IMG/VR virus record: IMGVR_UViG_2713896897_000009
Origin: a virus
Lineage: Duplodnaviria; Heunggongvirae; Uroviricota; Caudoviricetes
Reading direction: 5' to 3' (one strand)
Length of the DNA stretch: 41,620 nt
The notes beneath the pieces are model-generated. The model saw nothing but the letters and a program-made list of their open reading frames with translations, did not search any database and was not told the origin of the DNA. Both the position numbers and the translations under genes were made by a program. How positions within the stretch are numbered: position 1 is the first letter of the stretch; each line of letters begins with the position of its first letter. Shown piece by piece: positions 29,871 through 30,654 of the stretch.

Positions 29871-29890
29871 CACTGTTCATAAATACAGTA
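29871..29890. promoter_or_regulatory. LexA (SOS) box CACTGTTCATAAATACAGTA overlapping a promoter-like element upstream of the KilA-N gene
   Basis: CTGT-N8-ACAG with AT-rich spacer and 3' TA flank; on the minus strand a TTGAGC-17bp-TATTAC element (29930..29925 and 29907..29902) lies just upstream. Confidence 0.6.
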
Positions 29891-29935
29891 TCTTTAACGA
29901 GGTAATACCCAAATTTAGGGTGTTGCTCAATTCCG

Positions 29936-30331
29936 TTACCGAGTTGCTAATTTGCAACTCGCTTTTTCGTACTTACTGATAGTGATCTCGACCTCCCCCT
30001 CCGGGATAACCGGTCCCCACTCCACCAGCATTCTTTTCACCTGACTGTCGTCTTCCCACACACCCGCGTGGGTCAGGGCGTCAAACAGCGCCTTGTTATA
30101 GTTGTCCAGATCGCGGATCCGGTTATCCGGAGGAAACAACACGATCTCCACTGAAGCAGGTGCCGACGTTGGTTTCGGCAGACGACGTAACTGCTCAACT
30201 ATTGCTGCACACGCCGCGCTCTGGAATTTTCGCCCCGCCGCGCTTATCAGGCTCTTACCAGCAAACGCCCCTTTGTTGGGGTGTCGCCAGTACGTGTTCA
30301 CGCTGGGCGGAAAAGGCAGTATTAGCTTCAT
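29936..30331 (-). CDS. rusA: Holliday-junction resolvase RusA
   Basis: 131 aa; LPFPPSVNTYWRH..RIRDLDNYNKALFDALTHAGVWEDDSQV matches E. coli RusA. Confidence 0.85.
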   Translation of the reverse strand: MKLILPFPPSVNTYWRHPNKGAFAGKSLISAAGRKFQSAACAAIVEQLRRLPKPTSAPASVEIVLFPPDNRIRDLDNYNKALFDALTHAGVWEDDSQVKRMLVEWGPVIPEGEVEITISKYEKASCKLATR

Positions 30332-30654
30332 ACTTTCAGGCCCCTCTCATGTAACCAGTGGGCTGCACGCAGCCTGGCGTTTGCCTCACCGGCAAGCAGG
30401 GCGCGGATAATCCCGACCGCCTCGCTGTCGTCGTCCTTCACCGCGGTATGAAGAGTGATACCCCGGGCCACGCCACGCTTTATCGTGATGACACCTTTTT
30501 TCTCCAGTGCGCGAAGATGCTCCACCGCTGCATTCACCGAACGGTATCCCAGCATGGTTGCCACCTCCTGATTGGTTGGCGGGAAGCCACGTTCTTTCTG
30601 ATAAGAAATCAGCATATCCAGCACCTGCTGCTGGCATTGAGTTAATGTCGTCAT
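30328..30654 (-). CDS. LexA DNA-binding-domain paralog lacking the S24 autoprotease domain
   Basis: About 50% identity by eye to LexA residues 1-70 (LT..QQQV.D.I..........PPT..E.A..LG.RS.NAA.EHL.AL..KGVI); recognition helix SVNAAVEHLRALEKKG vs LexA SPNAAEEHLKALARKG; only 108 aa. Confidence 0.75.
   Translation of the reverse strand: MTTLTQCQQQVLDMLISYQKERGFPPTNQEVATMLGYRSVNAAVEHLRALEKKGVITIKRGVARGITLHTAVKDDDSEAVGIIRALLAGEANARLRAAHWLHERGLKV

Follow-up and report, generated by a model that had tools for sequence, protein, structure and literature searches.

The IMG/VR record IMGVR_UViG_2713896897_000009, a stretch of 41,620 nucleotides analysed in full (the window), is a lambda-like Escherichia coli prophage that carries three strong predicted operators for the host SOS repressor LexA. 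Its early-right operon, on the minus strand, also contains a gene for a short relative of LexA's DNA-binding domain (DBD), here called the paralog. One operator lies in this operon ahead of kilA-N, DUF968 and Q, the second inside the repressor gene cI and the third at the start of a methylase gene after Q. The account that we prefer is that host LexA gates SOS-inducible phage genes and that the paralog may afterwards re-occupy the boxes; we hold it tentatively, as falling just short of evenly poised, with the gating inferred from sequence and the re-occupation speculative. The elements concerned are the following.

29871-29890, no strand assigned: predicted LexA operator CACTGTTCATAAATACAGTA, about 100 nt upstream of the kilA-N ATG
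35093-35112, no strand assigned: second predicted LexA operator TACTGTATGTAAAAACAGTG, in the cI linker codons T-V-C-K-N-S, 24.4 bits
26971-26990, no strand assigned: third predicted LexA operator TACTGTAAAAATATCCAGTT (as read on the minus strand), codons 3-9 of the methylase gene, 25.1 bits
30328-30654, minus strand: LexA-DBD paralog, 108 aa, from Pfam, PDB sequence and NCBIfam searches and an AlphaFold model

Predicted LexA operators

The site ahead of kilA-N, DUF968 and Q agrees with the consensus TACTGTATATATATACAGTA at 16 of 20 positions and has the CTGT-N8-ACAG form with an AT-rich spacer, that is, the canonical gammaproteobacterial SOS box that a first-pass annotation of this DNA had recognised in it. 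It scores 22.5 bits with a position weight matrix, higher than anything in 200 shuffles; the set of E. coli boxes on which the matrix was trained has 13-28 bits, and all scores given here are approximate. Scoring the whole window in this way returned the kilA-N box as a strong site together with the cI and methylase boxes, equally strong and previously unnoticed, and the best site besides these three has 8.5 bits. The window holds five CTGT-N8-ACAG matches where 0.56 are expected, and three sites with four or fewer mismatches to the consensus where 0.01 are expected. When half-site spacings from N0 to N14 are compared, N8 alone is enriched.

Two of the three operators are conserved. Among 20 unique cI sequences the arms of the box are invariant, while no part of the gene varies more than the linker codons next to it. 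A box of 22-27 bits occupies the same codon positions, T-V-x-x-x-S, in phages of E. coli, Shigella, Salmonella, Klebsiella and Cronobacter; examples are Eeyore, Flotzy, Salmonella ST64B (83% amino acid identity), a Klebsiella phage (71%) and Cronobacter ENT47670 (50%). The comparison spans 50-98% amino acid identity, over which the rest of the linker cannot be aligned; a P22-type repressor of 43% identity lacks the box. Judged by this alignment, the cI box is a clear phylogenetic footprint. The possibility that it represents the known SOS link of the K-12 prophage e14 was considered and rejected: nothing in the e14 region scores 10 bits or above, and the repressor YmfK is a different one.

The methylase box persists in 24 upstream variants of 78-97% identity, all of E. 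coli type, which differ at codon 2 and in the bases immediately 3' of the box, and it is present in 21 of 21 methylase-bearing paralog loci. A LexA box also stands at the methylase start in locus L171 (10070-10089 of that locus). In the Shiga toxin (Stx) 2a phage Stx2_EH2201, which has neither the paralog nor kilA-N, it scores 24 bits and lies between Q and the tRNA genes plus stx2AB, about 1.4 kb upstream of stx2A. The methylase module matches 47 phage records, mostly Stx2 phages. Since the methylase and cI boxes are kept while their surroundings diverge, these two sister boxes are clearly under selection. A hairpin precedes the methylase gene.

27031-27049, minus strand: hairpin CTGCTTTGCGCAAAAGC(G/A)G, about 35-50 nt upstream of the methylase ATG, in all variants compared

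The cI box also overlaps a candidate internal promoter, TTTACC-17-TACTGT (35070-35098), downstream of which come GAGGA, a further 10 nt and then GTG, in frame at codon 84 (35133). The 17-nt spacing is constant in five of six cI allele types, and in the Cronobacter type TTCTCT replaces TTTAC(C/A). This conserved hexamer doubles as code for a conserved peptide. One idea, which the constant spacing fits, is that an internal cI start would give an SOS-induced C-terminal fragment of CI. The transcript STnc1310 of the ST64B Salmonella transcriptome (PMC7067206) was tried as such an internal start and rejected, as it lies about 330 nt downstream of cI.

The LexA DNA-binding-domain paralog

The product of 30328-30654 matches the whole Pfam model PF01726 LexA_DNA_bind (positions 1-65 of 65, E=2.9e-19, 69 bits), so its first-pass assignment to the LexA DBD stands. 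Among E. coli LexA chains in the PDB it matches 1lea with E=6e-16, and with 1jhh residues 2-90 are aligned to 2-86. The NCBIfam lexA model TIGR00498 is matched at positions 1-91 of 203 only, at 70.7 bits and so below its cut-off of 110.95. An AlphaFold2 model (predicted local distance difference test score 80.5) has a winged helix at residues 1-68, joined by a flexible linker to helices at 74-87 and 93-102, and it superposes on DNA-bound LexA (3JSO) with a root-mean-square deviation of 1.0 A over 66 residues of 52% identity. LexA contacts DNA through S39, N41, A42, E44 and E45 (PMC3091678). The E. coli-type paralog keeps four of these five residues (S39, N41, A42 and E45) and has Val in place of E44, and it may still bind SOS boxes.

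Pfam finds no S24 domain in the paralog, which ends at residue 108, with rusA beginning at the stop codon. The absence of the autoprotease had been proposed before and is upheld; the accompanying claim that homology stops at the hinge is not, as it continues to about LexA residue 86-91 and it is the catalytic core that is missing. In the tail of the paralog the segment ALLAGE (A88-G89, 30388-30393) is aligned with the cleavage-site strand VAAGE of LexA (A84-G85), and the Ala-Gly pair is not conserved in the family, being AN, AK, NG, GG or DG elsewhere. The family looks like LexA truncated after the cleavage strand, and because it has no catalytic core self-cleavage is impossible.

Family members are 106-112 aa long in E. 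coli, Shigella, Citrobacter, Salmonella, Hafnia, Kluyvera and Cedecea, a steadiness across genera which marks the paralog as a real short protein and not a pseudogene. The family has thousands of members, 2527 of them in a single 90% cluster, and is already annotated as "LexA DNA binding domain protein" in mEp460, SfII, SfIV and Stx2 phages; a similar family appears in a survey of Stx phages as "pham 237, pfam01726" (PMC8136144). Full-text literature searches found no functional study of this widely annotated coliphage family. A pattern scan of genome contigs for more diverse paralogs gave seven loci, three of them useful, with patterns that were over-specific.

Boxes and paralog do not always travel together, which weakens the pairing suggested in the first-pass annotation. 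The kilA-N box occurs without the paralog in L008, L010 and L032, the cI box does so in three loci, and paralogs occur without boxes. A survey of 80 IMG/VR loci that encode KilA-N homologues found the paralog in 43 of 46 that have the kilA-N box and in 27 of 34 that do not; these loci are related, and no conclusion is drawn from the difference. As some box-bearing phages have no paralog, host LexA is the parsimonious, primary ligand, and it probably binds all three boxes. Whether the box at 29871-29890 controls transcription of kilA-N we regard as evenly balanced. Binding of the paralog to CTGT-N8-ACAG sites is quite possible and, on balance, somewhat doubtful.

Genetic setting

The genes run in the order cI, cro, cII/YmfL-like, Rha/Ash, O-like replication, PerC-like, dam, the 108-aa open reading frame, rusA and then a 162-nt gap, after which come kilA-N, DUF968/HNH, Q, tR', a small open reading frame and a DNA methyltransferase gene.

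34884-35576, plus strand: CI-type repressor (helix-turn-helix plus S24 domain), from domain searches, with a terminator 3' at 35597-35614
34526-34786: cro
32831-33979: protein with Ash and Rha domains, 382 aa, early operon
31304-31798: PerC-family protein, early operon
30651-31337, minus strand: Dam-type N6-adenine methyltransferase, directly upstream of the paralog, from domain search
29936-30331, minus strand: RusA resolvase, from domain search
28958-29773, minus strand: kilA-N, 271 aa from the ATG, from domain search, with a C-terminal half without recognised fold
27961-28956, minus strand: DUF968/HNH protein (YdfU family), abutting kilA-N and Q
27563-27958, minus strand: antiterminator Q, from domain search
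25949-26998, minus strand: type II-like DNA methyltransferase, downstream of Q and tR'

In enteropathogenic and enterohaemorrhagic E. coli, PerC proteins activate virulence genes. The full module is found in 185 of 5426 complete E. coli genomes. The paralog gene shares ATGA overlaps with dam upstream and rusA downstream and is therefore an early-operon product under CI control. From cro to Q the genes abut or overlap with the sole exception of the interval between rusA and kilA-N (29774-29935, with the annotated kilA-N ATG at 29773), which agrees with the earlier description of the box as lying in the only sizeable gap of the early-right region. The distance from paralog to box had been given as about 270 bp; it is about 440 bp beyond the stop codon, because rusA lies between.

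The gap contains or adjoins three further elements.

29902-29930, minus strand: promoter-like TTGAGC-17-TATTAC, 8 of 12 consensus matches, -10 hexamer without the final T
29940-29961, no strand assigned: palindrome CGAGTTGC-N6-GCAACTCG, a perfect 8-bp inverted repeat within the final codons of rusA
29804-29817, minus strand: hairpin GGGAGUGCAGUCCC, immediately 5' of the kilA-N ribosome-binding site

A T-run accompanies the palindrome on the plus strand only, which is the antisense, non-coding strand, and only there is the palindrome terminator-like. It lies near a mosaic junction (about 29963) at which phages swap the kilA-N module. The hairpin upstream of kilA-N is also found in L047, L048, L050 and L179-L181 with a conserved loop, (G/U)UGCAG, and its stem covaries among alleles (GGGA/UCCC, GCGGGA/UUCCGC and GGCGG/CCGCC) with no U-run 3' of it; it may be an RNA regulatory element. 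In a distant BLAST search with the 178-bp gap sequence the matches were to the same module only, in five phage records.

Proposed circuit and alternatives

In the account that we prefer, a first layer would be formed by host LexA sitting on 29871-29890, where it most likely gates a weak internal start point. Cleavage of LexA would allow kilA-N, and possibly DUF968 and Q, to be transcribed before CI is lost, as in the nin-region operon of the Gifsy prophages. The second layer would be the paralog, which as a product of the CI-controlled pR operon would be made only after loss of CI or on infection. Its short helical tail is a putative aid to dimerisation. Reportedly, repression by the LexA N-terminal fragment, as in the LexA(1-87)-zipper fusions of the Little, Schnarr and Baker labs, needs an added dimerisation element, and the paralog looks like a natural LexA DBD with a helical tail that may be compared with those fusions. 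The N-terminal fragment of host LexA is removed by ClpXP. The most likely action of the uncleavable paralog would be to fill CTGT-N8-ACAG operators of phage and host once LexA is depleted, so that the LexA-gated genes would be expressed as a transient pulse and the host SOS response would be damped.

A fuller version joins all three host-LexA operators and the uncleavable LexA mimic in one two-stage SOS circuit, and we think it rather unlikely. In it, cleavage of LexA would fire the kilA-N block, the methylase gene after Q and the cI-internal promoter. The C-terminal fragment of CI made from the last of these would poison repressor dimers, in effect placing an antirepressor within the repressor gene itself. 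The mimic would then close every CTGT-N8-ACAG operator again, ending the pulse and silencing the host SOS response, LexA-gated induction of competing prophages included.

Several observations weigh against the preferred account, and each is given here with the alternative on which it bears. The kilA-N box is present in all 46 surveyed loci with a kilA-N allele of at least 99% identity, intact in 45 and with its core changed from ACAG to AGAG in L030. The flanks of these 46 alleles are identical as well, and as this is one near-identical E. coli/Shigella allele the conservation of the box carries no information. None of the kilA-N alleles of 67-79% identity has a canonical box; the Kluyvera locus has a degenerate one, GGGTGTATGCATGAACAGTG, L047 has only the right half ATGAACAGTG left and the Citrobacter farmeri locus has no box. 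Three allele groups nevertheless keep the right half ATGAACAGTG, with intergenic sequences that cannot otherwise be aligned. On this comparison the box is lineage-specific and a remnant of it older.

It follows naturally to ask whether the kilA-N box has little or no regulatory effect, as a recent chance gain or a decaying remnant confined to one lineage. Its restriction to the near-identical allele, the mutated core in L030 and the half-sites or blanks of related alleles all speak for this. A 22.5-bit site is not expected by chance, however, and it occupies the sole intergenic gap, in the right placement for the downstream genes; the retained right half and the selection on the two sister boxes point the same way. 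We consider a box of little effect quite unlikely.

The order methyltransferase-paralog-RusA-gap (89-162 nt)-KilA-N-DUF968-antiterminator is conserved in L177, L179, L180 and L181 (Citrobacter farmeri, Kluyvera georgiana, Cedecea and a metagenome contig), which were found by exact-protein look-up, and no canonical box occurs in the cross-genus relatives with this order (Citrobacter, Kluyvera and Cedecea). The proximity of the box to a LexA-like gene, which had been put forward as its most telling feature, thus reflects conserved gene order. That order invites the alternative that the paralog is tied to the adjacent methyltransferase, as its controller or as a nucleic-acid-binding partner, and has no part in an SOS circuit. 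The paralog always follows a methyltransferase gene, although the enzyme families vary (Dam, D12 and large C5+D12 fusions), and the two genes are translationally coupled. An unrelated MT-A70 methyltransferase of the Stx phage PA8 needs a winged-helix partner (PMC10810198); this was set aside as an analogy only, being a different enzyme at a different locus with a different gene order. The adjacency may also be explained by a variable slot in the nin region, and a methyltransferase partner seems to us very unlikely.

A further difficulty is the promoter that gating would require. The letters of TTGAGC-17-TATTAC proposed in the first-pass annotation are indeed present, but the element is weak, and equally weak alternatives overlap the box. 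A consensus promoter scan returned nothing in the 29774-29935 gap, and likewise nothing upstream of the methylase ATG or at the cI box. TGAACA-16-TATTAA and TTGATA-17-TAAGTT, also in the gap, are no better, and the candidates found by hand have 7 or 8 of 12 matches each, several of them overlapping the box. By its sequence, the site at 29871-29890 may either control a promoter of its own or act on read-through. LexA on this box might instead be a roadblock or delay to polymerase reading through from pR, so that Q would be reached slowly in undamaged cells, favouring lysogeny, and fast under SOS. The lack of a good promoter in the gap suits this, as does the position of the box between the early genes and Q within a single transcription unit; the methylase box, downstream of its start codon, would also fit action on an elongating or just-initiated polymerase. 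An antiterminated polymerase would probably pass, and we know of no case in which an efficient LexA roadblock far from a promoter has been established. A roadblock is in our view rather improbable.

The paralog family gives further points of this kind. E45 is replaced in the paralogs of Citrobacter, Kluyvera, Cedecea and L047/L086 (NAAADH, NAATAH, NAAATV and NTITGH), and since it is lost outside the E. coli type, binding to SOS boxes cannot be the family-wide or ancestral function. In 28 of 80 paralog loci there is no strong box within up to 10 kb on each side. The one characterised DBD-only LexA homologue, gp6 of the Bacillus phage GIL01, binds a different palindrome, GaCACAnnTGTGaC, and activates a late promoter. 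These facts favour a paralog with its own DNA specificity that serves as a phage regulator, possibly an activator like gp6, with the boxes left to host LexA only. Set against them, S39, N41, A42 and E45 are all retained in the E. coli-type paralog, whose identity to the LexA DBD is 52%, and the window shows no other enriched palindrome or half-site spacing that such a regulator could use. We regard own specificity as unlikely but deserving serious consideration.

The last alternative is the reading of the first-pass annotation, in which KilA-N is a LexA-controlled antirepressor that opens a CI-independent route to induction. LexA-controlled antirepressors are known in the Gifsy prophages, coliphage 186 and N15, and some KilA-N-domain proteins carry ANT domains. 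In the present protein PF04383 (residues 14-118) is the only domain recognised by Pfam, and searches gave no ANT/KilAC domain (PF03374), no NCBIfam match and no PDB sequence match. Foldseek found no match to its model at E<0.4, with weak hits to Mbp1/PCG2 (APSES-type) only, and PADLOC was uninformative on its function; the KilA-N fold is an APSES-like, DNA-binding one. The C-terminal domain of the cI product is of S24 type, with GDSM, VKRL and an Ala-Gly site, and the repressor looks cleavable by the RecA route. With these S24 features in CI, and with KilA-N lacking ANT/KilAC, an antirepressor route is neither needed nor indicated; most kilA-N alleles, moreover, have no LexA box. We judge this reading highly improbable. 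A LexA-only route to Q would also risk lysis at sub-lethal damage, which counts against our own preferred account of LexA gating followed by re-occupation.

Relation to known systems

The combination had been thought undescribed in lambdoid coliphages, and in kind it has precedents in the Gifsy prophages (PMC3121763) and in gp6 of GIL01 (PMC6182141). In Gifsy-1, -2 and -3 a LexA box preceded by a palindrome lies 1.3 kb downstream of the replication genes and drives dinI, an antirepressor gene and irsA (PMC3121763), and transcription of this operon is SOS-dependent and independent of the prophage repressor (Lemire et al. 2011, PMC3121763). The present phage is likewise lambdoid, with a predicted nin-region LexA box past the replication genes and preceded by a palindrome. 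It differs in that the Gifsy operons contain a dinI homologue and a small antirepressor, neither of which is seen in kilA-N-DUF968-Q. Gifsy repressors are non-cleavable, whereas the cI product here has an S24 domain, and the palindrome at 29940-29961 is not a terminator on the coding strand.

In the Bacillus tectivirus GIL01, host LexA and gp7 act as repressors, and the late promoter P3 is switched on by gp6, a LexA homologue in truncated form (PMC6182141, PMC4551915). Both phages thus combine LexA boxes with a DBD-only, uncleavable LexA homologue made from the early operon. gp6 is little more than the DBD, whereas the coliphage paralog adds a two-helix tail and keeps the LexA recognition residues; GIL01 has no CI-type repressor, and the target and sign of gp6 may differ from those of the paralog.

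With Tum of coliphage 186 and AntC of N15, a host LexA operator on a phage promoter couples induction to SOS, as is proposed here. Tum and AntC are dedicated antirepressors, however, and no such role is indicated for KilA-N. At the CTXphi promoter PrstA host LexA and the phage repressor RstR co-repress, as cited in PMC8044961, and the likeness is that host LexA and a phage repressor act on one phage; CTXphi is filamentous, has its operator at the main early promoter and has no LexA paralog. What is new here is a variation on the Gifsy and GIL01 wiring and not a new category.

Biological significance

The induction of lambdoid prophages is usually taught as RecA-stimulated cleavage of CI alone. 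The present analysis indicates that common prophages overlay CI control with several predicted host-LexA operators, and the most interesting by-product is the one that phages of five genera keep within the repressor gene. In at least one Stx2a phage another of these operators is situated between Q and stx2; it heads a methylase module that many Stx2 phages share. If LexA gating is true, SOS-inducing antibiotics could alter phage expression below the damage threshold for CI cleavage, and in Stx phages the effect would include genes adjoining the toxin genes. If the paralog does re-repress SOS boxes, it would be a phage anti-SOS factor with a bearing on mutagenesis, persistence and prophage competition.

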